A stretch of 30,351 nucleotides of DNA, from the IMG/VR virus record IMGVR_UViG_2663763000_000012; one strand, given 5' to 3'. Made by a program: the position numbers and the translations under genes. Positions 619-24,220 of the stretch are shown here, piece after piece (within the stretch, counting starts at the first letter, position 1; each line of letters opens with the position of its first letter). The notes beneath the pieces were generated by a model. The model saw only the letters and a list, made by a program, of their open reading frames with translations, did no database searches and was not told the origin of the DNA. This DNA is from a virus. Its lineage: Duplodnaviria > Heunggongvirae > Uroviricota > Caudoviricetes.

Positions 619-1782
619 TCACTCATCATCTTCTGTTTCGTACTCCACATCAGAAAGCCTGACCTCAAGCTCCAGGGACGTCGTGAAGCCGCTATTATTC
701 AGAAAATGTGTCACCTTAGTGATTGTCCAGTCCTGCTCGTCTATGACGCGCTTAAAGCCTGACACTTTAACCGGTGTTTCCGTGTAAATATCAGCCCGAC
801 CGGTAGCCAGGATGATGGAGAACTCCGCTACACCCCGTTGCAGCTTATCCCACTTCGCCTGAGCGGCACGCATGGCCTGTGCTTTCGTGGCATATACCGT
901 GGTCAGGGCAAAAACATTGTCAGCCTCACCAGCCATGTATTCACCTTCGCGCGCTTCCGGTACTTTTGGCGCTTTCTTCTGCGTGACTGGTTTCGCTTTC
1001 GGGTGCTCCAGTGCGCGCAGGTGTTTCTCTTTCTTTTTGCGTTTCAGTTTTACCTTCTGCTTTTGCGGTTTCGGGTCTTTGGTGTGTAACCACTTTGCCG
1101 TTACACCGGTATAGGCTCCACGGTCAGCAATCGCAAAATGATGGCGGTCGCCGTCGCTGCGGGTTATGGTAATCTGCGGGATTTTTTTACCGCTGGCCGT
1201 CACCCCCTGCCCCGCTTTGAGAAACAACAGTTTTCCCATTTTTACCGACACCTCACCGCCGTTGCGTTCAGCAAGGCGGGTCAGGAATTTCGCATCAGAC
1301 TCCTGCGACTGGTCGATGTGCGGGATTTTAATTCCGGCCAGTGACGGCGCGACACTGGCTTCCAGCCTGTTACGGGAGGCTATCGCCTCAACAATCGCAC
1401 CGAGCGTGGTGTCATGCCAGGAGCCTTCACGGCGGGAATTGAGCGTCCCGCGAAAATCTGCACTCCGGGCGCGGATGGTGACCACATCCGGTGCGCCCCG
1501 GTGTTCAACCTCATCAACGGTAAATTTCCCTTTGCATACCAGGGCAAAACCTTTCCAGCCGATATACACCGTCAGGACAGCGCCACGAACCGGCAGTCCG
1601 ACCTGCCCGTCGGCATCGTTCAGTTCAATATCAAGCTGGTCAGCCTCAAAGCCCCGGTTATCCGTCAGAGTCATGCTCATCAGACGGTCGCTGATATTGC
1701 CGGTAATATCCCTGCTGTCGAGCATCAGCATGTAATCCGGCGTCAGCGTACTGCCTGCATCAAATGTCAGCGCATCCAGCAT
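619..1782 (-). CDS. D: Tail protein D (late control gene D family)
   Basis: 387 aa ORF, ATG start; the size and the U-D-ogr order match P2 gpD; start overlaps the U stop (ATGA). Confidence 0.9.
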   Translation of the reverse strand: MLDALTFDAGSTLTPDYMLMLDSRDITGNISDRLMSMTLTDNRGFEADQLDIELNDADGQVGLPVRGAVLTVYIGWKGFALVCKGKFTVDEVEHRGAPDVVTIRARSADFRGTLNSRREGSWHDTTLGAIVEAIASRNRLEASVAPSLAGIKIPHIDQSQESDAKFLTRLAERNGGEVSVKMGKLLFLKAGQGVTASGKKIPQITITRSDGDRHHFAIADRGAYTGVTAKWLHTKDPKPQKQKVKLKRKKKEKHLRALEHPKAKPVTQKKAPKVPEAREGEYMAGEADNVFALTTVYATKAQAMRAAQAKWDKLQRGVAEFSIILATGRADIYTETPVKVSGFKRVIDEQDWTITKVTHFLNNSGFTTSLELEVRLSDVEYETEDDE

Positions 1783-2261
1783 TATCCCGCCCCCGTCATA
1801 CCCGTGAATTTAGTCGCCATACTGCCAGCCTTACCGATGAGCGATTCCGCCTGTTTACCGATATCGCCATAAAGCGCGGCCAGTGATTCATCAACGCGGG
1901 TGAGCGACAGCGTAAAATCAATTTTTCGGGGTGTGCCGTCTGCAAAGAAAATACTCCCTGTTTCACTCACCCTGCTGATGACATACATGCCGTAAATCAT
2001 GCCGGTGCCATCCAGCAACGGCCACGCCCGACCTTCCTCTGCCATCAGCCTGAGCGTAGTCATCGTCAGCTTTCCGCCGGTCAGCTCGGGATAAAGCACA
2101 CCGGCAAGCGTGATGTTTTCCTCGCCAACACCGAGAAACTGAAAGGCATCCCGTTTACCGATACGGGAATTTGACGGCCAGCGATAATCTGATTCACGCT
2201 GCATGGTCTGGTGTGGCAGCGTCTGGCGCATAAAAACAAACATACCTAACGCGAGCATCAT
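1782..2261 (-). CDS. U: Tail protein U
   Basis: 159 aa ORF between T and D, matching the size and position of P2 gpU. Confidence 0.88.
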   Translation of the reverse strand: MMLALGMFVFMRQTLPHQTMQRESDYRWPSNSRIGKRDAFQFLGVGEENITLAGVLYPELTGGKLTMTTLRLMAEEGRAWPLLDGTGMIYGMYVISRVSETGSIFFADGTPRKIDFTLSLTRVDESLAALYGDIGKQAESLIGKAGSMATKFTGMTGAG

Positions 2262-2275
2262 TTTTCGTCACCTCC

Positions 2276-4723
2276 TTAACCGTCATGCATCATGCTGGCA
2301 CGGGCGCGCGCACGTTTATCCCGCTCGTATTTTTCGAGCGCAGCCTGTAACTGGCGGTCAAGCTGTGTCCCCGGCGCATTACCACCCGTCAGGCTGATGT
2401 GATATTCGTTTTTACTCTGGTCCACATAAGAGCGGCCAGCCGGTGCCGTGACCGGCTGATAAGCCTGATAGCCTGCATAAGAGCTGGTCGCCGGAATATA
2501 ACCACCGCTGCCATACGTGGCGGCTTGAGTTCTGGCGGCGGTCTGGTCAAGTGTGTCTGACTCTTTGTTGATAACACCGAGTTTTTCCAGTACCCAGTCA
2601 ATACCGCTGCGCAGTTTGTTGAACGCATTAAGCGGCAGCATCAGCGCGTCAGCCAGTGCCTGCCCGAACATGACCCCCGTGTCACGGCAACTGTTCAGGG
2701 TGTCCTGAGTGGCTTTGACCGGGGCAATCAGGTTTTTAAACCACTGCCACGCGGCCTGTAACTTTTCACCCAGCCAGTCAAACACCGGCTTAAGTGGCGT
2801 GAACAGTTCCCCCACCGGCGCAAATGCCGCTTTCAGCCCTTCCACCACACCGCCAAAGAATGCGCTGACAGGCTCCCAGTATTTACGGATAAGCAACGCC
2901 CCGGCGACAATGGCGGCCACCACGGCCACAACCGGCCAGCTAATCGCTCCGATGGCGGTCATAACAGCACTGCCAACCGTCGTGAAGATTGCCCCCATTG
3001 CGCCTGCTGCCGCGATGATGGCATTGATGCCGGTGATAACCGGCCAGGCTACGAGGCCAATGGCACCGATGACACCAATCAGTGCCAGTGCACCACCGAC
3101 AATGATGCCGATGGTTGACGCCAGTGATTTGTTTTTCTGGATCCAGCCGTCGAGTTTTAACACATACTTTGTGGCCGTCTGCGTGAGCTTACGCAGCGCG
3201 CCTTCCTGCTGGTCAAACAGGTCAGTCCCCACTGCCTCATAAGCGGACTGAAACTCTTTAAAGTCACCGCCTAGGTTGTCCTGCATGATATTTACCAGCT
3301 CGGCGGTCTTCCCGTCTGAGGCTTTAAACGCAGCGGTCAGTTTGTCCAGCTTTCCGGTTGAGGCGGCAGTCATCAGCACGGCGGCGGCTGAGCTGGCCTC
3401 CTCCCCGAAAATAGTTTTCATGTATTCAGCCTGCTGGGCAGTACCGAGCCGGTTTTTCTCAAAACTGGCCTGCATTTCTTTCAGAATGGTAAATATTGGC
3501 CGGGTGTTTCCCTTGCTGTCTGAGGTTTTCACTCCAAGCTCTTTGAGTGCATCCCATGCTTTTCCCGTCGGTGCCTGCAGGCGGCTTAACACGGCACGGC
3601 TTCCCGTCCCCGCCATTGAGCCTGTGATTTTTGCATCATGCAGCGCCCCGACCATTGCGGCGGTTTCTTCAATGCTGACACCGGCATTTTTTGCCACAGG
3701 TGCGGCATAGGTCAGCGCATCGCTCATGCCGTCAAAATCGGCGGCGGTTTTGTTCATCGTCATGGAGAGAACATCCCCGATATGAGCGACCTTATCGTTT
3801 GAAAGCTGAAAGGCGGATTTCATCCCCATCAGCAGGGCGGCGTTTTCTTCCATCGTGCGGCGGTTCGCCAGCGCCATATTCAGCGTGACCGGCGTTGCCG
3901 CCTGAATGGCATCAACATCCCCACCCGCTTTCGCGATGATTATCTGTGCACCGGCCGCATCATCCGCCGAGGCGGCGGTATTGTCGCCGAGCTGGCGCGC
4001 CTGTTTGCGTAGTGCGGTCATTTCGGCGGAGTCTTTTGCCACTCCGAGCACGGCCTGCAATTCTGAGTTTTTCTGCGCAAACTCATAACCGGGCATCAGC
4101 AACTTAACTCCGGCCATCGTTCCCGCAGCAGCAATCCCCACACCGGCAGCGCCTACTGAGGCCATATTTCCGGCCAGTTCCTTTCCGGCCTGATAACGCT
4201 GTTTGACTGCGTTAAGTTTTGCCTGTTGCGCACTGACACGCGCCAGCGCGTCGCGCTGCCGGTTAAGCTGTGCGGTGGTTTCACTGATACGGTTTTTCAG
4301 TCCCTGCTCATCATGTGCAAGATTGCGGGTATTAATTCCCACAACGGCCAGTTCCCGCTGCTGGCGTTTAACGGAATCCGTCAGGCGGTTATATTTCGCC
4401 TGTAAGTCCTCCGTCGCACGCTTTGCGGATTCCAGCACTTTCACCTGAGCACGGGTCGGTCGTTCGGTATTTTTAAACTGTGTGGCAAGGGCTTCAGCTT
4501 CCTGCCGTGCCTTTTCAAGTGCATGACCAGTCACGGCAAGCTGTGCACTGGTCTTGCGAAATCCCTCAATACGGGATGCCTGACCGTTCAGCTCGCGCAG
4601 TGATTTTTGTGTTTCCCGGATATCCCCCGACAGCGACTTACTCGCTGTGCGGATGGATTTAAACGGGCGGGATGCCTGGTCAACAGCCCTGAGCAATACC
4701 TGTAATTTTACATTGTTACTCAT
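2276..4723 (-). CDS. T: Tail tape measure protein T
   Basis: 815 aa, coiled-coil-rich N-terminus, Gly/Ala-rich hydrophobic central segment, directly downstream of E/E'; size matches P2 gpT. Confidence 0.9.
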   Translation of the reverse strand: MSNNVKLQVLLRAVDQASRPFKSIRTASKSLSGDIRETQKSLRELNGQASRIEGFRKTSAQLAVTGHALEKARQEAEALATQFKNTERPTRAQVKVLESAKRATEDLQAKYNRLTDSVKRQQRELAVVGINTRNLAHDEQGLKNRISETTAQLNRQRDALARVSAQQAKLNAVKQRYQAGKELAGNMASVGAAGVGIAAAGTMAGVKLLMPGYEFAQKNSELQAVLGVAKDSAEMTALRKQARQLGDNTAASADDAAGAQIIIAKAGGDVDAIQAATPVTLNMALANRRTMEENAALLMGMKSAFQLSNDKVAHIGDVLSMTMNKTAADFDGMSDALTYAAPVAKNAGVSIEETAAMVGALHDAKITGSMAGTGSRAVLSRLQAPTGKAWDALKELGVKTSDSKGNTRPIFTILKEMQASFEKNRLGTAQQAEYMKTIFGEEASSAAAVLMTAASTGKLDKLTAAFKASDGKTAELVNIMQDNLGGDFKEFQSAYEAVGTDLFDQQEGALRKLTQTATKYVLKLDGWIQKNKSLASTIGIIVGGALALIGVIGAIGLVAWPVITGINAIIAAAGAMGAIFTTVGSAVMTAIGAISWPVVAVVAAIVAGALLIRKYWEPVSAFFGGVVEGLKAAFAPVGELFTPLKPVFDWLGEKLQAAWQWFKNLIAPVKATQDTLNSCRDTGVMFGQALADALMLPLNAFNKLRSGIDWVLEKLGVINKESDTLDQTAARTQAATYGSGGYIPATSSYAGYQAYQPVTAPAGRSYVDQSKNEYHISLTGGNAPGTQLDRQLQAALEKYERDKRARARASMMHDG

Positions 4724-5143
4724 TCGTGTTTCCGCTTCGCCGGAGCGCCTTTTCGCGCCATGTGATGAGTTCGGTCAGGCTCATGGGATACAGTTCTGAT
4801 GGCGGCCAGTGAAATATCACTGCCACATCCGCCATCAGGTCATCGACCGAGAGATTTTTCGGAAACGTCACTGCACCGAGTTCGGCGACAAAAAACCGAC
4901 CACCTTACCGGCCAGCGCCACAAGGTCAGGCAGTTCCAGCGCGGCGACTTCCTGCTCGGTCAGCATCGGTGCCGTCATGCGCGGCAGCACCTTAATCAGT
5001 GCATCGACTTCGGAGTTTGCAACCGCAGCCAGACTGACACCGCGTAGCGTCCCGGCATTGGGTTTCATCAGCGTGACCTGTTCGATAACCTGCTCACCAC
5101 GTTTGACCGGATTGTCCAGGGTAATGACATTTTCTTTGTTCAT
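4716..5143 (-). CDS. E+E': Tail assembly chaperone E+E' produced by -1 programmed frameshift
   Basis: Slippery run GGTTTTTTG on the minus strand (plus coordinates about 4889-4897) inside E. Hand translation in the -1 frame from this site stays open to a TAA at 4716-4718, giving about 142 aa in total and overlapping the T start codon (4721-4723). Confidence 0.75.
4868..5143 (-). CDS. E: Tail assembly chaperone E (zero-frame product)
   Basis: 91 aa ORF MNKENVITLDNPVKRGEQ... between FII and T; ATG at 5141-5143; stop TGA at 4868-4870. Confidence 0.85.
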   Translation of the reverse strand: MNKENVITLDNPVKRGEQVIEQVTLMKPNAGTLRGVSLAAVANSEVDALIKVLPRMTAPMLTEQEVAALELPDLVALAGKVVGFLSPNSVQ

Positions 5144-5199
5144 GGTTTTCTCACTTCTGAATCAGGGTTAACCGGCCAGCCAGGCTGACCGGATGAAAA

Positions 5200-5718
5200 T
5201 CACAGGCCGATATTGCGGCGGTGTTGCTCCAGCCGGTCGACGCCGTTCACCTTCTCAATCATGTTGATGGTGTCAATTTCGACCAGCTCCTTACCGTCCA
5301 TCGTCAGCCGGAAATAGGTGCAGACCACTGAGATTTTCGACTCGGTGTCTTCTCCCTGTTTCCCCTCGCCGGTGTCGATTTCTTTCTGACGTCCACGCAT
5401 GACCACTTCGACGGCCACCGTTTCGCCGGTATCGTCGCGCTGGTAAGAGCCTGCAAAACGAATCGGCACGGCATCCACACCGGTTGCGGCGTAAAGCTCC
5501 CAGATAACCGAATCCGGGAAGCCACCGAGCGACCACTCCATTGACAGCGCATCGTCATCAAGGCCGAGGTCTACCGGTGCGCTGCCGTTCATCCCCGCAC
5601 CGCGATAGTTTTCGAGCTTACGGGTCAGTTTTGGTAGCGTGACGGACTTCGCGACGCCCTGATAGCTGTAGCCGTTCAGAAAGACGTTCATTAACTTGAG
5701 TTTGCGCGGCATTGCCAT
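5200..5718 (-). CDS. FII: Tail tube protein FII
   Basis: 172 aa ORF immediately downstream of FI; size and position match P2 gpFII. Confidence 0.9.
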   Translation of the reverse strand: MAMPRKLKLMNVFLNGYSYQGVAKSVTLPKLTRKLENYRGAGMNGSAPVDLGLDDDALSMEWSLGGFPDSVIWELYAATGVDAVPIRFAGSYQRDDTGETVAVEVVMRGRQKEIDTGEGKQGEDTESKISVVCTYFRLTMDGKELVEIDTINMIEKVNGVDRLEQHRRNIGL

Positions 5719-5730
5719 CGGTCAGGCTCC

Positions 5731-6831
5731 TTAATTGCTGTTAACCGAAGTGACCAGACTTGCCAGGTATCTGGAAGTAATACGCTGGCGCAGGGTCAGG
5801 TTTTCAAGAGGAGGCACCGGTGTATAGTCGTAGTCGATATACAGTTTTCCGGCCTTGAGGGTTTCCGCATCGTTGGATTCTTCGCTGAACCAGCAGGTCG
5901 CATCCACGATATAGCCGTTTGTTTTCAGCTCACGGAATTTGGCATTGATGCCGTCAACGATGTCGCGAATCAGCGTTGCGGTGATGGGCTTGTCCACCGC
6001 CCACATGTGCGCCTCAGCCATCGTGTCGGCCAGCACCTGCGCGGTGCGGGTGTAGTTTTCAAAGAGGAACAGCGGGTCATCAGAGCAGGTACGGTTACCC
6101 CAGAAGCGGAAACCGTCACGGCGAATCAGCGTAGTGACGCCTGACTCGTTAAGCAGGTCAGCATCGGTGCCGGACTCCTGCAAATCCCAGAATACAGATG
6201 CGCTGATGCCGGTAACACCGTTTACCCCGACGTTGGACAGCGTTTTATGCCAGCCCTGCTCCTGGTCGATTCTGGCACGCAGACCCAGCGCACGGGCGGT
6301 GGCATACGCGGTGGCGGTGGTACTGGTGACCGTATCCCATGCGCTGATATACCCGAAAGCGCGCAGCTTCTGACAGACTGATGCCAGTGCAACAGCCACC
6401 TCTTTGGTATCCAGCCCCGGCACACCGAGAATACGCGGTTTAACACCAGTTACCGACTCCGCCGCCAGCAGGGCTTTCAGTCCGGTGTACTGACCGTTTT
6501 CGTCGGTGGTGCCGATGATATTGGAAACGGTCTGCGCGAGCTTCGTTTCTTCGTCATCGCCGGTGCCCTCTTCCACGCGCACGACAACGGTGACCGGTTT
6601 TGACTGGTCAGCGATGGCCTGCAACGACGCCGCCAGCGTGCCTTTTTTACCGGCCTTTGCAATTGCACTCTGCACATTGGTAATCAGCACCGGTTTATTG
6701 AGGGGGAAGGTTTCCGCATCCGCATCGCTGGCCGTGCAGACCATGCCGACAATGGCAGTGGATACGGTGGAAATGACGCGGGTGCCGTCGTTAATCTCCA
6801 GCACCTGCACGCCGTGATGATAGTCACTCAT
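5731..6831 (-). CDS. FI: Contractile tail sheath protein FI
   Basis: 366 aa ORF, first gene of the FI-FII-E-T-U-D block; somewhat shorter than the P2 FI I remember (about 396 aa). Confidence 0.85.
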   Translation of the reverse strand: MSDYHHGVQVLEINDGTRVISTVSTAIVGMVCTASDADAETFPLNKPVLITNVQSAIAKAGKKGTLAASLQAIADQSKPVTVVVRVEEGTGDDEETKLAQTVSNIIGTTDENGQYTGLKALLAAESVTGVKPRILGVPGLDTKEVAVALASVCQKLRAFGYISAWDTVTSTTATAYATARALGLRARIDQEQGWHKTLSNVGVNGVTGISASVFWDLQESGTDADLLNESGVTTLIRRDGFRFWGNRTCSDDPLFLFENYTRTAQVLADTMAEAHMWAVDKPITATLIRDIVDGINAKFRELKTNGYIVDATCWFSEESNDAETLKAGKLYIDYDYTPVPPLENLTLRQRITSRYLASLVTSVNSN

Positions 6832-6890
6832 CCGTTTAACTCCGTGGTTAATGGGTGAGTGATATTTTCAGTTGTGCCGGAGATGTCAGG

Positions 6891-7484
6891 CTATTTGTCC
6901 CGGTTGGCTAAGGGATGACACAATTTATTCTTTGTCGCTGATGAGGGAAATTTTTTATAGAGCGTGGACAGACCAATATCAAAAATCAGTGCCACGCGTT
7001 GACGTGACTCCCCTGCAGCCAGCAAACGCCCGGCCTGCTCCCACTCACTCGTGGTGAGTTTAGGACGTCTGCCACCAATACGACCTTTGGCTCTGGCCGC
7101 TTCCAGCCCGGCCCGAGTCCGCTCGACAATGAGTTCTCGTTCCATTTCAGCCAGGGCACCCATCACATGAAAGAAAAAACGCCCCATCGGCGTGCTGGTA
7201 TCAATGGCATCCGTCAGGCTGCGAAAATTAATGCCGCGTTCGCGCAGCTCCTCAACCAGAATGACCAGATGCCGCATACTACGCCCCAGCCGGTCCAGCT
7301 TCCAGACTACCAGTGTATCCCCCTCCGATAATGTCCTGAGCAGTTTTTTCAGCCCCGGCCTGTCGGACTTCGTGCCGCTGATTTTATCCTCAAAAATCAG
7401 CTCACATCCTGCGCACTCCAGCGCGTTACGCTGCAATTCCGTATTCTGGTCATTTGTTGACACGCGGACATAGCCAATAAGCAT
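6891..7484 (-). CDS. Serine-recombinase DNA invertase (Gin/Cin/Pin/Hin family)
   Basis: N-terminus MLIGYVRVSTNDQ with the catalytic Ser motif of resolvase/invertase enzymes; C-terminal HTH region with ...STLYKKFP...; 197 aa; ATG at 7482-7484. Sits next to a tail-fibre region with oppositely oriented cassettes. Confidence 0.9.
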   Translation of the reverse strand: MLIGYVRVSTNDQNTELQRNALECAGCELIFEDKISGTKSDRPGLKKLLRTLSEGDTLVVWKLDRLGRSMRHLVILVEELRERGINFRSLTDAIDTSTPMGRFFFHVMGALAEMERELIVERTRAGLEAARAKGRIGGRRPKLTTSEWEQAGRLLAAGESRQRVALIFDIGLSTLYKKFPSSATKNKLCHPLANRDK

Positions 7485-7539
7485 GATGGATCCCCTGAAT
7501 AAAAACCGGGGATGATGCCAGTTAGCCGTAATCTCTGCA

Positions 7540-7565
7540 TTTTCTTAAACGTTGGTTTGGGGGAA
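7540..7565. other. Left crossover site (gix/cix-like 26-bp dyad) of the invertible tail-fibre segment
   Basis: TTTTCTTAAACGTTGGTTTGGGGGAA, imperfect dyad symmetry with AAAC/GTTT-containing half-sites; 20 of 26 positions match the inverted copy at 9345-9370, including a 10-nt identical core TTGGTTTGGG. Confidence 0.55.
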
Positions 7566-7901
7566 TTGGCTCTGGCTGGCGCAACAACCGGCGCTATGTT
7601 GGTGAATGGGTATGTAGCAATTCCATTAATTATTTCTGGCGTTCGGAGACCACTTATTATCCAGTGGGGAGTGGGGCAGTTTGGGGGAAGTCTGGGGGAT
7701 GATGCGGGATATTTAAACAATTTCCCTTTCGCTTTTCCGTCGGCGTGCTACGTGATGGTTGCCAGCCACGTGGGGCATACACCTTCGGGTGCCGGAATAC
7801 TATCTGCTTCCGCAATCACAAAAAGCGGCTTTCGTGGTTTTTCCAGCGTAGCGACTGCCGCAAATCCTGTATCGGGCTGTTATGTTGCTATAGGAGGGTG
7901 A
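7566..7901 (+). other. Promoterless alternative tail-fibre C-terminal cassette (Sv'-like), currently in the non-expressed orientation
   Basis: Open frame on the + strand running straight through the left crossover site (...NVGLGELALAG...), with no credible start of its own. The GLGE junction motif is shared with tail fibre H (...AYLGLGEG...) at the right crossover site. Stop at 7899-7901. Confidence 0.6.
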
Positions 7902-7902
7902 T

Positions 7903-8337
7903 GTGTTTTTTAGTCCATCTTTAAATATTTTTGTGAATCCTGCGCTTAAGGATGACTACATCAATGTAAATTCATGGCCAGATGATGCTGTTGAAGTTGA
8001 TGAGCAGGTGTATATTGAGTTTTCCGGATTACCGCCGAAAGGAAAAATCCGTATCGCTGGGGAAAATGGTTTTCCTGCATGGTCTGAAATTCCACCACCA
8101 ACGCATGAGGAACAGATTGCCGCAGCCGAATTGAAAAAACAGCAATTGATTAATCAGTCCAACGAATATATGAATACCAAGCAATGGCCTGGTAAAGCGG
8201 CTATTGGTCGTCTGAAAGGTGAGGAACTGGCGCAATATAATTTGTGGCTGGATTATCTGGACGCACTGGAACTGGTTGATACCTCCAGTGCTCCAGATAT
8301 TGAATGGCCTACGCCTCCGGCAGTTCAGGCCAGATGA
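7903..8337 (+). CDS. Alternative tail fibre assembly chaperone (U'-like)
   Basis: 144 aa, GTG start at 7903 preceded by AGGAGG (7892-7897); C-terminus ...DTSSAPDIEWPTPP... parallels the C-terminus of the minus-strand chaperone (8309-8902, ...DTSTAPDVIWPELP...). The two genes converge and overlap at their 3' ends. Confidence 0.7.
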   Translation: MFFSPSLNIFVNPALKDDYINVNSWPDDAVEVDEQVYIEFSGLPPKGKIRIAGENGFPAWSEIPPPTHEEQIAAAELKKQQLINQSNEYMNTKQWPGKAAIGRLKGEELAQYNLWLDYLDALELVDTSSAPDIEWPTPPAVQAR

Positions 8338-8902
8338 CATCCGGCGCGGTGCTCGTATCTGTTGCCGTCACCGCGTCAATGTAATCAAGCACGGCGTTAA
8401 GCCGGGTGGTTTCTGCCTGCGTCAGCTTCCGCCCGGCCTGTAATTTCAGCTGAATCAGACTGATGGAAGCCATTGCAGCATCAATCAGTGACTGGCGCTG
8501 TGCTTCTGCCGCTTCTACTGCGGCACCGTGTTGTGCCTCAGTATCTGTCACCCATTTCTCACCATCCCATTTATCATATGGCGTTAACGGTGAAAGCGTG
8601 ACATAACCGTTTTTGATGGCACCGATATAATCCACTGTAACAGCAGCACCATTTTCGATTGAGTAAACAGTCTCATTGCGATGGTCTTCTTCATGGCTCC
8701 ATCCCTTACCTGTAAATACTGCCACTCTTCCCGGAATGTTTTCGCCAGGGTCAATACCAGTGGAACAGGCGGGCATACTTACGCCAGTATTAATATATTC
8801 ATCAGACCAGCCCGTATACTCAGATGTTTCAGCATCATAATAAAAACAACGCATATCGCCCGGCACTGTAGCCAGCCCATTTTCATCAAAAACAGGTTTC
8901 AT
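8309..8902 (-). CDS. G: Tail fibre assembly chaperone (G/U-like), expressed orientation
   Basis: 197 aa, ATG at 8900-8902 overlapping the H stop; SD-like GGTGAGGG upstream; conserved C-terminal DTS.AP motif shared with the alternative copy. Confidence 0.85.
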   Translation of the reverse strand: MKPVFDENGLATVPGDMRCFYYDAETSEYTGWSDEYINTGVSMPACSTGIDPGENIPGRVAVFTGKGWSHEEDHRNETVYSIENGAAVTVDYIGAIKNGYVTLSPLTPYDKWDGEKWVTDTEAQHGAAVEAAEAQRQSLIDAAMASISLIQLKLQAGRKLTQAETTRLNAVLDYIDAVTATDTSTAPDVIWPELPEA

Positions 8903-10185
8903 TATTTAGCCCTCACCAGAAAGTTAAATGCAATATTTCGCGGTCTGACAGCAACAAAATTCACACCATCACCCACAGAGTTACTGGTGAAATTAAATCG
9001 TGAAAATCCTGGCTGATTTCCGGCGATGCCATCATGAAAGTTAATTGCGTGTCCCGCACCTCCGCCTATATTCCCGGCAAACTGAGAAAAGTTTGTAGCT
9101 TCCTGCCAGCTTAATAATTCGCGACCACCATCGGCACCTCGCCCGTCATCCCAGATACGAATGAAATCACCGCGGGCTTCAGGTAATACCAGTGAAGGAA
9201 ACACTTTCGCCAGCACAGGGTAATCAGAGGCAGAAAATTTCGCCCCGTTGAACTTCAAAAACACCATACTGGACCAGCTGTCGATTACAGTATTTGGCAT
9301 TGCAGCGGACGGCCAGAAGAACGGAACGCCAATAGCTGGAGCACCTTCTCCCAAACCAAGGTATGCGAGAAGACCAGCTACATCCTTTCCACTCAAATGA
9401 GTCAGCGTCTCATCCAGTGGCTGCTTACCTGACAGCGCATTGTTAATGGTGGTACTGAATTTCGGGTCATTGTTGATAGCTGCGGCAATTTCTTTCAGTG
9501 TGTCCAGCGTGTCAGGGGCACCGTTAATCAGAGCGGTAATAGCGGCCTGTACAAACGCAGTGGTCGCAATCCGCGTGGTGTTATTTCCTGCGGCAGGCGT
9601 CGGCGCTTTTGGTTCTCCGGTAAATGTCGGATTATGTTTCTGTGCATACTGGGTATGAGGATCCTGTGCGGCAATATGGTTTCTCATCTGGTCATCCACA
9701 TACAGCCTTAACTCCAGGACTTCATCATCCACGTATTTACGGGTCGCCAGTACCACCGACGGGTCGATTTTCAGCGTGATGGCTTCGGTATTCGTGACAA
9801 CCAGAATCATGCGGATAGTCTGGGTACGACCACTGCCTTCCTGCAACTGCGGTTTGTACGTTTCCGGGCAGTTCGCCACCGCAATGAGTACGCCTTCATC
9901 ATCATAAAGCCCAATCTCACGGATCCAGAATCCGCCCTCGTTCTCAGGGATGATTTGCTCCGCAATAATCTGGCTCTGGTTGTTCGGGTCAACACTCAGA
10001 AGATTCAGCGGCGCGATGCGTTTCTGGTTAATAAGTTTTGTCTGTGCCGGGTCTGGTGTCGGCAAGACACCATTTGCATCACCAACGGCCATTTGCGTCA
10101 GATTCAGCTTACTGCCGAGCATCGTCGCGTTAGCCAGCCGTGCCGCGCCCTGATTAGTCAGAATGGCGTAGTATTTCACTGTCAT
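8902..10185 (-). CDS. H: Tail fibre protein H (constant N-terminus fused to the currently selected variable C-terminus)
   Basis: 427 aa; N-terminus MTVKYYAILTNQGAARLANA...MAVGDANG resembles the conserved P2 H / Mu S N-terminal region; start overlaps the I stop (ATGA). The crossover site lies inside the coding sequence at about codon 265. Confidence 0.85.
   Translation of the reverse strand: MTVKYYAILTNQGAARLANATMLGSKLNLTQMAVGDANGVLPTPDPAQTKLINQKRIAPLNLLSVDPNNQSQIIAEQIIPENEGGFWIREIGLYDDEGVLIAVANCPETYKPQLQEGSGRTQTIRMILVVTNTEAITLKIDPSVVLATRKYVDDEVLELRLYVDDQMRNHIAAQDPHTQYAQKHNPTFTGEPKAPTPAAGNNTTRIATTAFVQAAITALINGAPDTLDTLKEIAAAINNDPKFSTTINNALSGKQPLDETLTHLSGKDVAGLLAYLGLGEGAPAIGVPFFWPSAAMPNTVIDSWSSMVFLKFNGAKFSASDYPVLAKVFPSLVLPEARGDFIRIWDDGRGADGGRELLSWQEATNFSQFAGNIGGGAGHAINFHDGIAGNQPGFSRFNFTSNSVGDGVNFVAVRPRNIAFNFLVRAK
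9345..9370. other. Right crossover site (gix/cix-like), inside tail fibre gene H
   Basis: Minus-strand sequence TTCTCGCATACCTTGGTTTGGGAGAA; inverted relative to the left site; half-sites TTCTCGCATACC and TTCTCCCAAACC show dyad symmetry. Confidence 0.55.
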
Positions 10186-10793
10186 GCGTTTACTCTCAGG
10201 TTATCAATTAAATGAATGGCCGAGGCCGGGAAATAATCCCCTCCGACAATAATGGCCTCCGGGGTGTAGGGATAAACCATCAGGGCGTCGCCGTGATAGC
10301 ATCCCGCACCGGCAAAAATGTTGCCGGTTGTACTTAAACTGATAGCCAGTCCCGTCAGATGGCGGCTTGCAGGTTTTGCATCAGCAACGAGACGCTCCAG
10401 CTCCTGATACATTTCCTCGGTAATACCCTGCTCAAGCACGCCAACAACGATGCGGAACGTCCCCGGCTCCTCGTTGAGCTGCCACCACTCCCTCACCTCA
10501 ATCAGATAGCCGAGCGGCTCCACCACACGGCGAATCGCACCAATAGTGCCCTTATGGCAGTGAATGAAATACGCATCGCGGATAACAGCGCGTTTTGTCG
10601 CTTCCGGCCACTTATCATCCCAGCGGTCAACCGAAAATGACCACGCCAGCCACGGCAGCAGATTTGCCGGACAGGTATCCGGGTTCCATAGCTCACGAAT
10701 ACTGACCGGCGTTTTTTCAATTTCCGCACAGGCTTTTGCGGCGGCGACTTCAAGCGGTGATGAGCCGGTCGGCAGCAGTCGCGAATCACTCAT
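10182..10793 (-). CDS. I: Baseplate assembly protein I
   Basis: 203 aa ORF between J and H, in the position of P2 gpI; ATG start overlapping the J stop. Confidence 0.85.
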   Translation of the reverse strand: MSDSRLLPTGSSPLEVAAAKACAEIEKTPVSIRELWNPDTCPANLLPWLAWSFSVDRWDDKWPEATKRAVIRDAYFIHCHKGTIGAIRRVVEPLGYLIEVREWWQLNEEPGTFRIVVGVLEQGITEEMYQELERLVADAKPASRHLTGLAISLSTTGNIFAGAGCYHGDALMVYPYTPEAIIVGGDYFPASAIHLIDNLRVNA

Positions 10794-11694
10794 CCGAGCC
10801 TCCGGTCACGACGCGGTATTCAGTACAGAAAGACGCCTGCGTACTGTTGAGCACGATGTCAGCCAGAGGTGCAGTCAGTTCGACACGCTGCACGCCTTCC
10901 ACATGCAAAGCGGCATAAATGGCAGACAGACGGATGTCGCGCCCAAGCCGGTGCTGTGCCGTGATGTACGCTTCCAGTTTTTTCACGGCAGCAGCGCGGA
11001 TGGGTTCGCTTTCGGGACCTGGGTAAAGGTAAAGCGTGGCGTTTATCTGATATTCAACAATGGCGGCAGACTGCACGGTCACGCGGTCGGCCACCGGCCT
11101 GACGTCCTCGCCATTAAGGGCGTTACGCACCACGGCCAGCAGGTCTTCGGATGCGACGCCGTTATTTTCACGTGACAGCACGGAGATAGTGACGCAGGCC
11201 GGAGACGGACTGGTGACAGAGATATCCGCGACACGCCCGTCAGCACTGCGACCATGATACTGATAGGCTCCCACCGACCCGGCGACGCTTAAGCCCTCAA
11301 ACGCCTGCTGAATACGCAGACGATAATCGGTGTCAGACTCCATCACTGCCGGTGTCGGCGGGATAGTCGAATCATCTGCCGGGGTGATAATCAGGCGCGT
11401 GGTGTTGTAATTGGCACCAATCACATCAAGGTCATTACCGGCGGCACAAGCCAGCATCACCGCCCGTGCGGCCTCATTCACACGCTGACGCCAGATAAGC
11501 TCACGATAAGCATTTTCCTCCAGCAGTTTGACGAGAGGCTCGGATTCCAGCGTCAGGGTACGGGCGACCGCCTCCTGCTGGTCTTCCGGGTAAAGGGAAA
11601 TCAGTGTCGCCTTGCGTTCGGCAAGAATGGTTTCAAAGTCCAGCTCCTCGACCACATCCGGTACGGGTAGCTGGTTCAGGTCGATAATCGGCAT
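10786..11694 (-). CDS. J: Baseplate protein J
   Basis: 302 aa ORF, size and position match P2 gpJ. Confidence 0.9.
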   Translation of the reverse strand: MPIIDLNQLPVPDVVEELDFETILAERKATLISLYPEDQQEAVARTLTLESEPLVKLLEENAYRELIWRQRVNEAARAVMLACAAGNDLDVIGANYNTTRLIITPADDSTIPPTPAVMESDTDYRLRIQQAFEGLSVAGSVGAYQYHGRSADGRVADISVTSPSPACVTISVLSRENNGVASEDLLAVVRNALNGEDVRPVADRVTVQSAAIVEYQINATLYLYPGPESEPIRAAAVKKLEAYITAQHRLGRDIRLSAIYAALHVEGVQRVELTAPLADIVLNSTQASFCTEYRVVTGGSDE

Positions 11695-11698
11695 GGTT

Positions 11699-12046
11699 TC
11701 AACTCACAGGGATGGTTAACGAAAGTGGCTGGCCGGTGTCGTTGTGCTGACCGGTTAACGTGACCGTCATTCGCCCGTCAAAACTGCGCGCCGTGGTGAC
11801 GGATGACAGGGTGACGCGGGGTTCCCATTTCAGCACGGCCATGTAACAGGCGACCTTAATCTGCAACTCAAGCGCCGGGGTCTGCGGCTGGTCAATCATT
11901 GACGCCAGCAACGAGCCGTAATCACGACGCATCACCCGTGAGCCGACCGGTGTGCGCAGGATATCGCCGATACTCTGGCTGATATGCTCAAGGTCAGTGA
12001 CAGTCAGGCCATCACTGCGATTCATTCCGAGATAACGCGCTGTCAT
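11699..12046 (-). CDS. W: Baseplate protein W
   Basis: 115 aa ORF following V, size and position match P2 gpW. Confidence 0.9.
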   Translation of the reverse strand: MTARYLGMNRSDGLTVTDLEHISQSIGDILRTPVGSRVMRRDYGSLLASMIDQPQTPALELQIKVACYMAVLKWEPRVTLSSVTTARSFDGRMTVTLTGQHNDTGQPLSLTIPVS

Positions 12047-12678
12047 AGAGGACTCCCGGTTGTGCCGCCGCTGTCGCCGGGGTGTTTATGGGTATGCAGT
12101 ACCTTACCGTTTGATGAGAGTTCACCGCCGGTGTGTTCAATGTTGCCGCGCATCGTCCCGCCCATCTGCACTTCCAGCGTGCCGGTAATCAGCCTGTTGG
12201 TGCAGACCACCTCCGGGGTGTCCAGGGTGACGCGGGTTGATGCTTTCACCATGACCACCGGCACCGTGGCAGTAACAGAATCAGAAGCCGTCACGCTGGC
12301 CGTTTTAATTCCGCTTACCGTGAGTGCACTGGTTTCAGGTTCATACTCAATCACCGCCCCGTCAGGGAAACGGATATGCAGGGCATCAGCCGACGCAGAC
12401 GGCGCGGGGTTATCGCCGGAATAAATCCCCGGCAGAACGAACGCCGTGTCGAGTTCACCACCCACGGCCAGAATCAGCACCTGTTCCCCCACGGAAGGTG
12501 CCCACCATGTGCGCGAACACCCGGCACGATGGGTCAGCCACTGAAGCCAGTCGGTGCACATGCCGCCGGTCTGCACACGGCAGCGACCGGCGTTAAGGTC
12601 GGTTTCGACGACAAGGCCGGTACGAATCATGTTGCGCAGTGCGCGCGCGAGTTCCTGAATATTTGCGAGAGTGTTCAT
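12043..12678 (-). CDS. V: Baseplate spike/hub protein V
   Basis: 211 aa ORF, first gene of the V-W-J-I-H-G block; size matches P2 gpV. Confidence 0.9.
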   Translation of the reverse strand: MNTLANIQELARALRNMIRTGLVVETDLNAGRCRVQTGGMCTDWLQWLTHRAGCSRTWWAPSVGEQVLILAVGGELDTAFVLPGIYSGDNPAPSASADALHIRFPDGAVIEYEPETSALTVSGIKTASVTASDSVTATVPVVMVKASTRVTLDTPEVVCTNRLITGTLEVQMGGTMRGNIEHTGGELSSNGKVLHTHKHPGDSGGTTGSPL

Positions 12679-12744
12679 AACGGGAAGGATGCCGCCGGGT
12701 CATACCGGCGGCAATGTGACGATGAGGTGTCGGGAATGGCACAA

Positions 12745-13197
12745 CTAACGGTCGAGGTGCGCCAGAATAATCTCTTCAATCATCTGCACATCCTCACCGG
12801 TAAAGCCGAGCAGGGGACGCGCCGGATAATCAATTTTCTTACCGTCTTTCCGGTTTTCTTCCGACAGACCGAACTGATGCACACTGGCGATTTTCGGTGA
12901 CTTTCCGCCGTAAAACTCCATTGATGCCTGTTCCGGGCTGGCGCGGATATGCAAAAAACGACTGGTGATAAGTTTCGCAAACATTTTTCGCTTAACGCGC
13001 CCGGTCTTTTTTCTGGCGCTCTGCTGCTGGCGTGGTGCGTAGGGTGTGCCGTCCGGGGCTTTCTGTGCCATCACCCGGCGCTGCTGACTCTGCCGCAGAC
13101 GTTTCGCCAGTTCGGCACTCAGTCGCCGACGCCCTGACGGTGACAGCGACTCAATCAGTCCGGCCAGCCGGTCTTCAAAACGCTTAAACTCATTCAT
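12745..13197 (-). CDS. S: Tail completion protein S
   Basis: 150 aa ORF downstream of R, overlapping start/stop; size matches P2 gpS. Confidence 0.85.
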   Translation of the reverse strand: MNEFKRFEDRLAGLIESLSPSGRRRLSAELAKRLRQSQQRRVMAQKAPDGTPYAPRQQQSARKKTGRVKRKMFAKLITSRFLHIRASPEQASMEFYGGKSPKIASVHQFGLSEENRKDGKKIDYPARPLLGFTGEDVQMIEEIILAHLDR

Positions 13198-13657
13198 CCC
13201 ACTTGCTCACCAGTTCGCCATTGATATAAAGCTCCATCGGGCGGGTGACCGGCTCCGGCGGCGGGGGTTCCGGGATATTCTTCACATGCAGTGCGCCATC
13301 CACCTCACTGACCAGCGTGCGCTCGGTCAGCATCAGGCTGATGCTGATATCAAAGCTGCTGTCATTGTTGATGTCTGCATAAAACGTGAAGCCCTTTTTC
13401 TGGCCTTCGTCGGTGGTCATGATGTCGGGCTGATTTTCCCGCAGCCACGCCAGCACCGGCACGATGAGCAGGTCAAAATCACCGGTAAAGTCGGTCACAA
13501 TGACATTGAGCGTGTAACGCTTTTCGAATGACAGCGACGTCGCCAGTGTGGAGGCAATACTCCCGTTATCCACGAATATCCGCAGCATCTCGGGGCTGGT
13601 TTTCAGCACCGTGACGGCATCAGTCAGTGCCCTGCGCAGGCTGTCGGGTTTGAGCAT
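13190..13657 (-). CDS. R: Tail completion protein R
   Basis: 155 aa ORF after the lysis cassette; size matches P2 gpR. Confidence 0.85.
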   Translation of the reverse strand: MLKPDSLRRALTDAVTVLKTSPEMLRIFVDNGSIASTLATSLSFEKRYTLNVIVTDFTGDFDLLIVPVLAWLRENQPDIMTTDEGQKKGFTFYADINNDSSFDISISLMLTERTLVSEVDGALHVKNIPEPPPPEPVTRPMELYINGELVSKWDE

Positions 13658-13910
13658 CGTTTTTGTCCTGACAGTGTTTAATCATTTTTACCTGGCTGGC
13701 ACAGCGTGCCAGCGCGTTCTCAAGCTGCCGGATATCGGCACTTAAATCGCCGTTCTTCTGCGGGTCACTGCCCGGCATCGGGCAAAGGCTCACTTTCGGG
13801 CAGGCGTTGGCGACAATCACTGGCGTCAGTGCAGGCGGGGCGCTGGTGCAACCGGCGCACAGCATCAGGCAGGTCAGCACCATACCAGCGGCGAAAATCT
13901 TCGTTTTCAT
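13620..13910 (-). CDS. lysC: LysC, Rz1-like outer-membrane lipoprotein spanin component
   Basis: MKTKIFAAGMVLTCLMLCAGC... has a lipoprotein signal peptide and lipobox (LCAGC); 96 aa; lies in a different frame overlapping the 3' part of lysB. The ORF-track entry 13620-14027 is an upstream extension. Confidence 0.7.
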   Translation of the reverse strand: MKTKIFAAGMVLTCLMLCAGCTSAPPALTPVIVANACPKVSLCPMPGSDPQKNGDLSADIRQLENALARCASQVKMIKHCQDKNDAQTRQPAQGTD

Positions 13911-14190
13911 TAAGTAACCTCGTGATGGTTTTCTCGCGCTGTGCTTCACGCTTCGCGGCGTTCTCCAGTTCCTGACGCAGTGCCACCTGCGCCAGCTCGT
14001 TTTTGTCTGCCCTGGTGAGGGCAACATGAAGCTGATTTTTCAGCATGGTGATGGTCGCCTGCTGTTCACTGGCGACGTTGTTCGCCCTGTCCAGTGAGGC
14101 GCGCAGTCTGGCGTTTTCATGCTTCGCCAGAAACAGCCCCGCCACCGCCAGCGTTAACAACACGACCAGTGCAATCATCAGCTTTGACAT
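13765..14190 (-). CDS. lysB: LysB, Rz-like inner-membrane spanin component
   Basis: N-terminal TM segment MSKLMIALVVLLTLAVAGLF followed by a coiled-coil-like periplasmic domain; ATG at 14188-14190 (the ORF-track start at 14199 is GTG); about 141 aa. Confidence 0.8.
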   Translation of the reverse strand: MSKLMIALVVLLTLAVAGLFLAKHENARLRASLDRANNVASEQQATITMLKNQLHVALTRADKNELAQVALRQELENAAKREAQREKTITRLLNENEDFRRWYGADLPDAVRRLHQRPACTDASDCRQRLPESEPLPDAGQ

Positions 14191-14603
14191 AGTTCCCACC
14201 CCTCAAGACGCTGACGGCAGGCCGTGCGTATCAGCCGGAAAAACAGCGACGCCACGAGATAAATCAGCGCAGTAAAAATCCACCCGGCGGCAACCAGCGA
14301 GATAAACGTCGCCACCATCACTACCAGAGCCGCCGCCCGTCTGCACCACGGCACCGGCTGCAAAAACAGCGACGTGACAATCTTCACGGCCAGCGATTCC
14401 GGCGGCAGCTCCCGCCCGTAGCGTTCCAGTACATACTCAGTGGCATACACGCCGACACCACCGGCAACCACACAGATAGCCGTCGCCAGAATCGCCCAGG
14501 CAGCGACAAAATTGACGGCCCCGCTCTGCGGGTAAATCAGGGACAGTGCCAGCATCAGCGCCAGCGACACGTTCAGCATCAGTGAAAGGGATAATTTCTT
14601 CAT
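14178..14603 (-). CDS. lysA: LysA, membrane protein affecting lysis timing
   Basis: 141 aa, multiple hydrophobic TM segments; sits between K and lysB as in P2. Confidence 0.8.
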   Translation of the reverse strand: MKKLSLSLMLNVSLALMLALSLIYPQSGAVNFVAAWAILATAICVVAGGVGVYATEYVLERYGRELPPESLAVKIVTSLFLQPVPWCRRAAALVVMVATFISLVAAGWIFTALIYLVASLFFRLIRTACRQRLEGWELCQS

Positions 14604-14617
14604 GGTGTTTACTCCGT

Positions 14618-15115
14618 TTAAGCCGGTACGCCGCCAGCGGTACGCCAGACGGTGACCAGTTTTTCCAGTGAATGCTCACGCTGACCGTAACCGGCACCCG
14701 GCAGGGACGCCCAGATATTGCGACAGCGTGAAATGGCGCGCTCAATGCGTCCCGCCCGGATGTCATCCAGTGCACCGCGTTCGCGGATCAACTGAATGGC
14801 AAGTCTGTCCTGTGACAGCGGACTGAAATCCGGCAGGGCAAGCTGTTTGCGGTAATGCGGCCAGAACAGGTAAAGCTGCTGATAGCGACCGGAGGCCGTG
14901 GATTTTTCACCGCGACGGTTAAACACCTTCGCCGGTCGGCCATGCGCGAACGGGTGGTCACTGTAGTCGGTGAAAATTTCCGGCTTCCCGTCCAGTCCGG
15001 TGACTATCACGTCATAGCCACGGTTTTTCGTCAGCGGATGATTCGCCGTCCCTTCGGATACCGCCAGCATGTCGAGAAAGGCGGCGATATTCTGATGCGT
15101 GTTAATTACCGGCAT
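14618..15115 (-). CDS. K: Endolysin K (lysozyme-like murein hydrolase)
   Basis: 165 aa ORF directly after the holin; size and position match P2 gpK. Confidence 0.88.
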   Translation of the reverse strand: MPVINTHQNIAAFLDMLAVSEGTANHPLTKNRGYDVIVTGLDGKPEIFTDYSDHPFAHGRPAKVFNRRGEKSTASGRYQQLYLFWPHYRKQLALPDFSPLSQDRLAIQLIRERGALDDIRAGRIERAISRCRNIWASLPGAGYGQREHSLEKLVTVWRTAGGVPA

Positions 15116-15396
15116 TACGGTTTCCCCCTGCCCTTAAAGCGGCGCTGAATGGCAATCTCAATCACCTGATAACCGGCGATACCCAGCATGGAGCCGATGC
15201 CGCACACCGCAGGCAGTGACAGGTCAGGAAACTGCACCAGAACAACACCGGCAACCATCGAGACAAAACCACCGAGCAACATGCGCCCGATAAACAGACG
15301 CGGGGTGATGGGTTCACCACCGGCAAGCACCTTGCCGACAACAATCAGCACCCCAATCATGAAAAGCGACAGGACGCTTTTTTCTTCTGCTGTCAT
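15115..15396 (-). CDS. Y: Holin Y
   Basis: 93 aa with hydrophobic TM segments and a charged C-terminus; immediately upstream of the endolysin. Confidence 0.85.
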   Translation of the reverse strand: MTAEEKSVLSLFMIGVLIVVGKVLAGGEPITPRLFIGRMLLGGFVSMVAGVVLVQFPDLSLPAVCGIGSMLGIAGYQVIEIAIQRRFKGRGKP

Positions 15397-15399
15397 GCG

Positions 15400-15603
15400 T
15401 TACTCCCACAGATTGACAGTTTCAGCCACGGGCGCGGTCTGAACGTCGGGCAGTTCGACGGCGGTGCCGTGTGGCAGCACCGCACCCAGTTCAGCCAGTC
15501 CCGGATTTGCGGCGAGCACGGTCTCAACCACGCCCTCAGTGCGCCCGTAATACCGGACACAAATGGCGTCGAGCGTGTCGCCCTGTAGCGCAAAGGTCTT
15601 CAT
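15400..15603 (-). CDS. X: Tail protein X (small LysM-like protein)
   Basis: ATG at 15601-15603 gives the 67-aa MKTFALQGDTLDAICVRYYG...; the longer ORF-track version (to 15672) overlaps L. Lies between L and Y. Confidence 0.8.
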   Translation of the reverse strand: MKTFALQGDTLDAICVRYYGRTEGVVETVLAANPGLAELGAVLPHGTAVELPDVQTAPVAETVNLWE

Positions 15604-16112
15604 CAGATTTGACTCACGATGCAGCGCGGTTTGTCCTGGATGCGCGCCACCGCCCAGCGCATATCCCGCCACAGCTCATCAATGGTGCTGTCAATGCTGT
15701 CGGCCTTCTTGTCGCCTTTCGCACTGGCATCCACGCCGCGATAACGCTCATAAAGCGACGCGGTCGCCATCGCACACACGGCGCGCTCGTAGTAAAAAAC
15801 TTTGATGCTTTCACCGTCGATGTCGTCCGCCGGGACGTCCGCCAGACGCGTAAAACCGGCGGCAATTTTCTGTTCGCGGTACTCGTACAGCTCCGCATTC
15901 GTCTCCGCCATGCCTGACTTGATGGCCTCACGCAGACGGGCGGGGGCGACGGTCTGCTCAAGGCGCATACGTTCCCGGACGCGCTTCGGGTCGATATCGG
16001 GAAAAAAGAACGTGTTTTTAATCACCGGCTCGTCGCCTGCCGGTTGCGGGATGACCACCGTACCCTCACCGGACACGGGAGCCTCCTTTCGCGGAATAAT
16101 CAGCGTCATCAT
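15603..16112 (-). CDS. L: Head completion/stabilisation protein L
   Basis: MMTLIIPRKEAPVSGEG... starting at ATG 16110-16112, 169 aa; the upstream extension in the ORF track starts at a non-ATG codon. Confidence 0.85.
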   Translation of the reverse strand: MMTLIIPRKEAPVSGEGTVVIPQPAGDEPVIKNTFFFPDIDPKRVRERMRLEQTVAPARLREAIKSGMAETNAELYEYREQKIAAGFTRLADVPADDIDGESIKVFYYERAVCAMATASLYERYRGVDASAKGDKKADSIDSTIDELWRDMRWAVARIQDKPRCIVSQI

Positions 16113-16211
16113 GACTACCTCTGAAAAGTCGGGCGGTGGACGCCGGTGCAGTGTCAGGTGATTCACCCTCACTGACCGGCGTGCCGCCCTGGCGCGGGGC
16201 GCATTCGGTTG

Positions 16212-16955
16212 TTAACTGGCTTTCTTTTTCGGGCGTCCACGTTTTGCCGGTGTCACGCTCCGGGTCTTACGCGGGGCGCGGGTGGCCGCTTTGGGCTGCG
16301 GCTCCGGCTTCGGTTTCAGCTCCCGCTCCAGTCGTTCAATCTCTTTTTTGACGCCTGCCTGACAGTCGAGCTGTGTCGCACGTTGCAGGTGTGCCAGCGC
16401 CCCTGCGGCATCACCAGCGTCACGCAGAAACAGACCGGTGATTTTGTGCAGCTTTGCGCGCACTTCATCAGGCATGTCAGCCGTGGCGGTCAGTTCAAGG
16501 GTGTCCGTCAGCAGTCGGGTATCCACAGACTCACCGGCAGCGTGGGCACGCATGGCCGCGAGTGCCACCTCCTCGGTGAACATGTACGGCGGGGTGCGGC
16601 GGTGTTTACCCGGCATGGTCAGACCGTACTTCAGGGCATAACGGGCAATCTCCAGCGCACCGGCAATATCGCCGGTATCCAGACGCCACAGCATGACCGT
16701 CATCAGAATGTCATCCTGTGCACCTTTGCCCTGCTCCAGCACGCCGTTCACCCACGGCAACCAGAACGGCAGCAGTTCGCGCTTTTTCGCGGCCTTAAGC
16801 TCTTTTGAATAAATCGCTTTCAGTGTGCGCTGGTCTGCGGCGAGCTTAACCAGCATCTGCTCATAGACAGTTGCATGTCGCAGCGGGGCGGCTTCCCGCT
16901 GCGCGGTCATCGCTGCCGAGACCCGCATCATGTGGCGCTGTGCGGGACTCGTCAT
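16212..16955 (-). CDS. M: Terminase endonuclease (small) subunit M
   Basis: 247 aa with a basic Lys/Arg-rich C-terminal tail; position after N. Confidence 0.88.
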   Translation of the reverse strand: MTSPAQRHMMRVSAAMTAQREAAPLRHATVYEQMLVKLAADQRTLKAIYSKELKAAKKRELLPFWLPWVNGVLEQGKGAQDDILMTVMLWRLDTGDIAGALEIARYALKYGLTMPGKHRRTPPYMFTEEVALAAMRAHAAGESVDTRLLTDTLELTATADMPDEVRAKLHKITGLFLRDAGDAAGALAHLQRATQLDCQAGVKKEIERLERELKPKPEPQPKAATRAPRKTRSVTPAKRGRPKKKAS

Positions 16956-16958
16956 CGG

Positions 16959-18032: not shown

Positions 18033-18090
18033 AGTTTTTCCTGAAATTAAGGGTTAATCGTGAAGGTTTTCCCGGACTGACTGACGCCGG

Positions 18091-18945: not shown

Positions 18946-19118
18946 TGTCAGGAGTCCTGAATAGTGATTAGAGGAGTCACATGTCGGCATCAGTTTCCCG
19001 ACGATGCGCATCCTCCGCCATCAGTCCCGGATGGCTTATCACTGACACAACAGCACCTTAGCGAATCGCGGGGCGCGACTCAGTAGCCTTGCCGTGTATT
19101 CATCACGGCGAGGTATTC
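18946..19118. promoter_or_regulatory. Divergent late promoter region between O (minus) and P (plus)
   Basis: 173-bp intergenic region between divergently transcribed capsid and terminase operons, equivalent to the Ogr-dependent PO/PP region of P2. No perfect TGT-N12-ACA element was found by eye, so exact promoter positions are not called. Confidence 0.45.
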
Positions 19119-24101: not shown

Positions 24102-24117
24102 CGTTTTCACCTTTTTC

Positions 24118-24148: not shown

Positions 24149-24220
24149 CATAACTATCAATAGTTAACACATGCAGATAAACAGCAATTTTACTATTATG
24201 CAACAAATTAAATCAGATGT

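Follow-up and report, generated by a model that had tools for sequence, protein, structure and literature searches.

The stretch of DNA analysed here (30,351 nucleotides, below called the window) carries genes in the order gpD, tape measure, tube, sheath, fibre, baseplate, lysis, capsid, terminase/portal, gene A, cox and integrase. This is the gene set and the gene order of a P2-type phage, with Pfam matches to Tail_P2_I, Phage_GPD, Phage_GPA, Phage_Cox and integrase, and the best DNA matches of the window are phages of the Peduoviridae. Judged by its genes and its closest matches, the window is a P2-like (Peduoviridae) prophage of E. coli.

Two open reading frames, at 7512-7901 and 7903-8337, are read from the plus strand. 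The original prediction had described them as a coding island opposed to the late genes, and the other long phage-matching ORFs in 619-19011 do all lie on the minus strand. It had also stated that the second ORF converges with the minus-strand chaperone gene at 8309-8902, and that the two products end in parallel motifs; the genes indeed run tail to tail with 29 nt shared, and both motifs (DTSSAPDIEWP and DTSTAPDVIWP) were found. In the alignment of the two chaperones, which had been proposed as a check, only the C-terminal 72 aa align, with 36% identity (E = 1e-11). The coordinates given for the island are right, but its extent was drawn too narrowly, as it represents only half of a mobile unit (7554-9357), which also holds the currently fused fibre C-terminus and the chaperone paired with it. 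The features of the locus are collected in Table 1.

Table 1. Features of the invertible tail-fibre locus, by position in the window (Sc, constant fibre part; Sv and Sv', alternative fibre C-termini; U and U', their chaperones).
Feature	Position	Strand	Description
Serine DNA invertase (Pin/Gin type)	6891..7484	-	197 aa, outside the invertible segment
Spacer, invertase start to proximal site	7485..7539		Invertase 5' region; gives the ATG and first codons of the 7512 ORF
First plus-strand ORF	7512..7901	+	129 aa, ATG
Invertase-proximal crossover site	7540..7565		26 bp; TTTTCTTAAACG TT GGTTTGGGGGAA
Invertible segment	7554..9357		1804 bp between central dinucleotides
Sv', alternative fibre C-terminus	7554..7901	+	115 aa; Pfam Gp53-like_C 1.5e-12
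Second plus-strand ORF; U', chaperone paired with Sv'	7903..8337	+	144 aa, GTG; Pfam Caudo_TAP 2.8e-35; PHROG 188 1.5e-61
U, chaperone paired with Sv	8309..8902	-	197 aa; Pfam Caudo_TAP 4.6e-27
Sv, currently fused fibre C-terminus	8902..9357	-	Residues 276-427; PHROG 3100, tail fibre C-terminal end, 1.9e-52
Distal crossover site, inside the fibre gene	9346..9371		26 bp; TTCTCCCAAACC AA GGTATGCGAGAA; encodes LAYLGLGE
Sc, constant N-terminal part of fibre gene H	9358..10185	-	Residues 1-275, outside the segment; Pfam Phage_tail_fib N-terminal domain 6e-63

The locus has a constant fibre N-terminus outside the segment, and two opposed C-termini inside it, each of which is followed by its own chaperone. 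The present fibre H (10185 to 8902) consists of 427 aa, the distal site being crossed at residue 275 (..LAYLGLGE..), and the ATG of U overlaps the stop codon of H. Sv' also matches the C-terminal ends of tail-fibre PHROGs, Sv is of the tail-collar type of PHROGs, and the ORF at 7512-7901 as a whole matches only the C-terminal tip domain of fibres. U' is preceded by a GGAGG ribosome-binding site with a spacing of 4 to the GTG (SD:anti-SD dG -10.7). Homology between the two fibre tips was considered and rejected (best local E-value 0.05 over 16 aa, no significant similarity).

The invertase contains the Pfam domains Resolvase (3e-52) and HTH_7 (8.6e-13), and it matches PHROG 125, DNA invertase (4e-101), and the crystal structure of Mu Gin, 3uj3 (E = 1.1e-94). 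Over 182 aa, its identity is 87% with PinE of e14 and 80% with Mu Gin; the ORF is intact and the catalytic nucleophile Ser9 is present (..YVRVSTNDQ..). Its C-terminal tail is approx. 13 residues longer than that of PinE, and for its last 15 or so residues there is no counterpart in either Gin or PinE. It is known that this invertase family is marked by sites of 26 bp and by a remote enhancer containing two Fis sites (PMC3798978). In the Gin and Hin systems this enhancer is situated in the 5' part of the invertase gene. In a comparison of synonymous-site conservation across the window invertase, gin and pinE, two 5' coding blocks of the invertase were identical in all three genes, TCAACAAATGACCAGAA (nt 24-40, in a conserved stretch at nt 22-40) and GCAGGATG (within nt 69-84), circa 46-48 bp apart, with no clear excess of synonymous-site identity over other parts of the gene.

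The spacer in front of the invertase aligns colinearly with the stfE-pinE spacer of e14 and the S'-gin spacer of Mu, with the conserved blocks TGGCATCAT and TTTTA..GGGGAT, and the distance from the crossover point to the invertase start is 68-69 bp here vs. 67 bp in Mu (G-segment boundary to gin). On the minus strand, the block TGGCATCAT lies at 7516-7524 and is conserved upstream of e14 pinE and Mu gin. It looks like an extended -10 element (TGnCATCAT), and the consensus promoter scan called no promoter there. Its complement supplies the ATG of what we regard as the spurious 7512 ORF, in the window as well as in e14 and Mu.

The best inverted repeat of the region pairs 7540-7577 with 9334-9371 (71% complementary over 38 nt). 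Within it are the two crossover sites, inverted with respect to each other, each having the form of half-site, 2-bp core and half-site, with complementary cores (TT and AA) and with half-sites that match those of e14 and Mu; the proximal site is identical to the pinE-proximal site of e14 in 24 of 26 positions. When the 19-nt site pattern was searched with at most 3 mismatches, just these two matches were obtained in the 30-kb window, where 0.02 were expected. The proximal site is situated within the ORF at 7512-7901, at 7540-7565, which bears out the earlier claim that the 5' end of this ORF is a crossover site, and codons 1-14 (7512-7553) are outside the invertible segment, in the upstream spacer of the invertase. 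Further sites were sought because one P2-like prophage of EPEC has a three-site, four-variant shufflon (three inverted repeats, compared with two sites and two states in the window). A looser 12-nt core pattern gave 21 matches vs. 14.5 expected, and a single mismatch was seen at the two real sites alone, so additional sites were rejected. Therefore, since there are only two sites in the window, the locus is a simple two-site, two-state switch.

When 7554-9357 is inverted in silico, residues 1-275 of the fibre are joined in frame to 7554-7901, which gives a 391-aa fibre ending in ..YVAIGG, followed by U'. A full-length fibre is read in frame in both orientations, each time from the ATG at 10185 (427 aa vs. 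391 aa). According to the mechanism we propose, in the present state the minus-strand late operon would transcribe H from this ATG, through Sc into Sv, and then U. The invertase (6891-7484) would pair both 26-bp sites in a synapse that, by analogy with Gin and Hin, would depend on Fis and the enhancer, cut at the central TT/AA, with exchange expected at the central TT (7552-7553) of the proximal site, and rotate the 1804-bp segment. After the flip, Sc would be in frame with Sv', an unrelated gp53-like tip, and U' would be the co-translated chaperone. The unrelated sequences of Sv and Sv', together with their different domain families, would fit different receptor specificities, and the inversion would be expected to change the host range.

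The flipped form is found in nature. The predicted Sc-Sv' junction (751 nt) was searched against 5,426 complete E. coli genomes, and it is contiguous in ECJXMCRH7 (99.6% identity) and in four ETEC genomes (99.3%), where it is annotated as a single tail protein. The gene order in ECJXMCRH7 is invertase, Sv fragment, U, U' and full-length H. Positions 7552-9362 of the window match ECJXMCRH7 in the reverse orientation (99.83% identity) and the flanks on either side match it in the direct one, and the inversion breakpoints are therefore in 7552-7565 and 9346-9362. The 391-aa fibre annotated in ECJXMCRH7 is one residue off the in-silico prediction, and its proximal site is the predicted hybrid, with the outer half of the left site of the window and the inner half of the right site. 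E. coli 2013C-4974, with essentially 100% identity, is in the orientation of the window. Across the genomes, the fused junction is present in 26 and the adjacency of invertase and Sv', as here, in 34, which means that the segment occurs in both orientations in nature (between genomes). Since the segment in the opposite orientation is 99.8% identical, the flip is evolutionarily very recent. The view of the plus-strand pair as an alternative fibre tip and chaperone that is switched on by inversion is supported by the adjacent invertase, the inverted sites, the in-frame fusion and the natural flipped allele.

Some particulars of these two relatives are worth recording. In the ECJXMCRH7 prophage (L002, NZ_CP067342.1, 283-1322) a truncated sheath gene is joined to the gpU/gpD region, and the tube, tape-measure and neighbouring genes are missing; owing to this deletion, the prophage in which the flipped state survives is itself defective. 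In 2013C-4974 (L003, NZ_CP027587.1, 3594-4877, corresponding to window 8902-10185) the intact 427-aa fibre ORF is split by NCBI into two 'incomplete' pseudogene pieces, while the flipped 391-aa fibre of ECJXMCRH7 is annotated as intact, i.e., the quality of annotation at invertible fibre genes varies with orientation. The 9 nt at window 7902-7910 (TGTGTTTTT), which hold the GTG of U' just after GGAGG, are missing in the otherwise identical prophage of 2013C-4974, and a shorter U' is therefore called there by NCBI; ECJXMCRH7, the flipped relative, does have these 9 nt.

Several known systems resemble the locus. The P segment of e14 in E. coli K-12 (stfP-tfaP / tfaE-stfE / pinE) has the same gene order, i.e., constant fibre part, Sv-chaperone, convergent chaperone-Sv and invertase, with the invertase outside the segment. 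U is 64% identical to TfaE and U' 58% identical to TfaP, while the identity is 41% between Sv and the stfE fragment and 39% between Sv' and the StfP C-terminus. The e14 genes tfaP and tfaE have a 29-nt convergent overlap, as do U and U', and the segment length is 1804 bp here vs. 1797 nt between the e14 repeat arms. However, e14 is a defective lambdoid prophage, whereas the window is a P2-like myovirus prophage; the constant fibre part here is P2 H-like (Phage_tail_fib N-terminal domain), unlike that of e14, and Sv and Sv' are only approx. 40% identical to their e14 counterparts.

In the G segment of Mu, which is inverted by Gin (S-U / U'-S' / gin; NC_000929), the logic and the layout are those found here. 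The half-site pattern TTnTCnnAAACC of the 26-bp Mu sites is common to the sites of the window, and in Mu, as here, a crossover site is part of the coding sequence of the fibre, where it specifies a conserved ..LGL(G/Q)E.. peptide. Unlike the present segment, the G segment measures approx. 3 kb, with variable parts that are much larger than here, and the central dinucleotide is TC/GA in Mu vs. TT/AA here. The C segment of phage P1, with its invertase Cin, is an analogous system. Hin/hix of Salmonella belongs to the same invertase subfamily, with 26-bp sites and an enhancer-dependent mechanism (PMC3798978), but Hin flips a promoter and the hin gene is inside the segment, whereas here coding cassettes are flipped and the invertase gene is outside.

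Among P2-like phages and prophages, the loci of EPEC E2348/69, of the phages 500465-2 and pro483, and of the 'P2' of O157:H43 T22 are positioned between the H/G genes and the sheath, as here. They are annotated with a DNA invertase and two tail-fibre assembly genes, again as here, and such loci are common in phage and E. coli collections. The prototype phage P2 is not known to have an invertase, and Z/fun occupies this position there. In P2-like prophages of EPEC, sequencing of cultures has shown inversions that provide one protein with alternative carboxyl termini, and the same approach has shown inversion at e14 in K-12 (PMC4272514).

From the anatomy of the locus, the in-frame fusion, the homology to e14 and Mu, and the occurrence of both orientations in nature, we conclude that the two plus-strand ORFs are very probably that half of a Pin/Gin-type invertible tail-fibre segment which is not expressed, in a P2-like prophage of E. 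coli. A different reading would be that of a frozen relic, in which the invertase, the enhancer or the sites are inactive, no flipping takes place here, and the plus-strand cassette is a permanently silent pair of pseudogenes. The outer half-sites have diverged, with the inverted repeat just 71% complementary over 38 nt, as might be seen in a relic, but the inner half-sites have been conserved together with the central dinucleotide, and the e14 sites likewise have diverged outer halves. The synonymous-site conservation at the candidate enhancer blocks, which is not clearly raised, would also be in line with a relic. Against it, the invertase has an intact ORF with Ser9 and is 87% identical to PinE, whose locus flips measurably in K-12 (PMC4272514). 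Decay elsewhere in the prophage (the 90-nt sheath deletion) and the loss of the 9 nt carrying the U' start codon in the near-identical 2013C-4974 prophage point towards a relic; on the other hand, both cassettes are intact ORFs and a 99.8%-identical segment is known in the other orientation. Considering all this, a frozen relic is very unlikely, and the invertase is probably active in the present strain.

The tail sheath gene deserves a separate remark. This gene (5731-6831, minus strand) encodes 366 aa instead of 396, with the junction at 6336-6343, as relative to 2013C-4974 it has a private 90-nt (30-aa) in-frame deletion between two direct copies of CCCATGCG; the 90 nt are present in all best matches among complete E. 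coli genomes, and the Pfam alignment to the sheath domain, which has 168 positions, takes in just 137 residues. The tails made by the prophage may be defective, or the deletion may be an assembly artefact. If no infectious particles are made owing to this deletion, the switch would be without a phenotypic outlet here. A deletion endpoint at 6336 that seemed common to the window and ECJXMCRH7 was rejected, because the 90-nt deletion of the window itself had produced it as an artefact of the alignment.

Even less probable than a relic is the independent expression of both ORFs, as a gp53-like-domain protein and a chaperone, from a promoter of their own in the invertase-proximal spacer and in either orientation. 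It is true that in E. coli 2013C-4974 the identical ORF is a CDS that PGAP names 'gp53-like domain-containing protein', but the domain match spans only the C-terminal tip of full-length fibres, and the first 14 codons are outside the segment, in a block conserved as the upstream region of the invertase. The spacers of e14 and Mu likewise have an ATG that is in frame with the silent tip, as does the spacer of the flipped relative, whose ATG leads into Sv; however, the conservation of this ATG is no argument for coding, because it is part of the complement of TGGCATCAT, which is conserved upstream of all three invertase genes, and the spacer ATG is conserved because that block is kept as the invertase upstream region. 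The original prediction had found no credible start for 7512-7901, and we reached the same result: before the ATGs at 7512 and 7515 the sole SD-like element is GGGG, with a spacing of 0-2 nt (dG -4.5/-5.7, where 18% of random 20-mers reach -4.0). A crude consensus scan, which may miss a weak promoter or one of a non-sigma-70 type, gave no sigma-70-like promoter on the plus strand upstream of 7512, which also argues against stand-alone expression, and over approx. 7 kb no plus-strand gene was found upstream of 7512 from which transcription could read through. The totals of the scan were at chance (3 promoter-like sites vs. 4.4 expected and 6 terminator-like sites vs. 4.3 expected), and the terminator-like sites include a weak minus-strand hairpin at 7523-7504. 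In Mu, the promoterless S'/U' cassette is classically reported to be unexpressed in G(+), which counts against stand-alone expression as well.

As far as can be judged from the sequence, Sv' has neither a promoter nor a real start in the present orientation, and the cassette is probably silent; the 129-aa product called by pipelines is best read as an artefact of the open frame. To speculate, since the spacer ATG is in frame with whichever tip lies next to the invertase (here, in the flipped relative, in e14 and in Mu), it might yield a free, N-terminally truncated receptor-binding tip, made along with the chaperone from a weak promoter that points away from that of the invertase, although we believe the chances of this to be very slim. 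If true, the free tip could be a soluble decoy or a superinfection-exclusion factor, and the cassette would not be fully silent.

As the probably unexpressed half of an invertible tail-fibre segment, the plus-strand pair belongs to an ordinary member of a textbook system, which is already in public genomes, and published work already describes inversion in P2-like prophages of E. coli. The locus thus matters little beyond its correct annotation: the 129-aa 'gp53-like domain-containing protein' is best read as a promoterless C-terminal fibre cassette, and the fibre gene should be described with two alternative 3' ends. For the prediction of host range of P2-like prophages or tailocin-like derivatives, both tips and both chaperones should be considered.

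Two minor observations concern the surroundings of the segment. The invertase stop (6891) and the sheath ATG (6831) are separated by only 59 nt, so that any late promoter of the P2 type serving the sheath operon would necessarily extend into the 3' end of the invertase gene; a search for exact TGT-N12-ACA P2 late promoters gave 2 matches vs. 7.4 expected, neither of them near the locus, and a partial element, TGT-N12-AAC, is present at 6918-6901 on the minus strand. Further away, the minus-strand gene at 22269-24206 encodes a 645-aa protein with DUF7380 and a weak DUF4209 match, which corresponds to the PADLOC candidate defence family PDC-S39 (2e-83). This candidate gene sits between the portal gene and replication gene A, an interval that we take to be an accessory-gene hotspot of P2.
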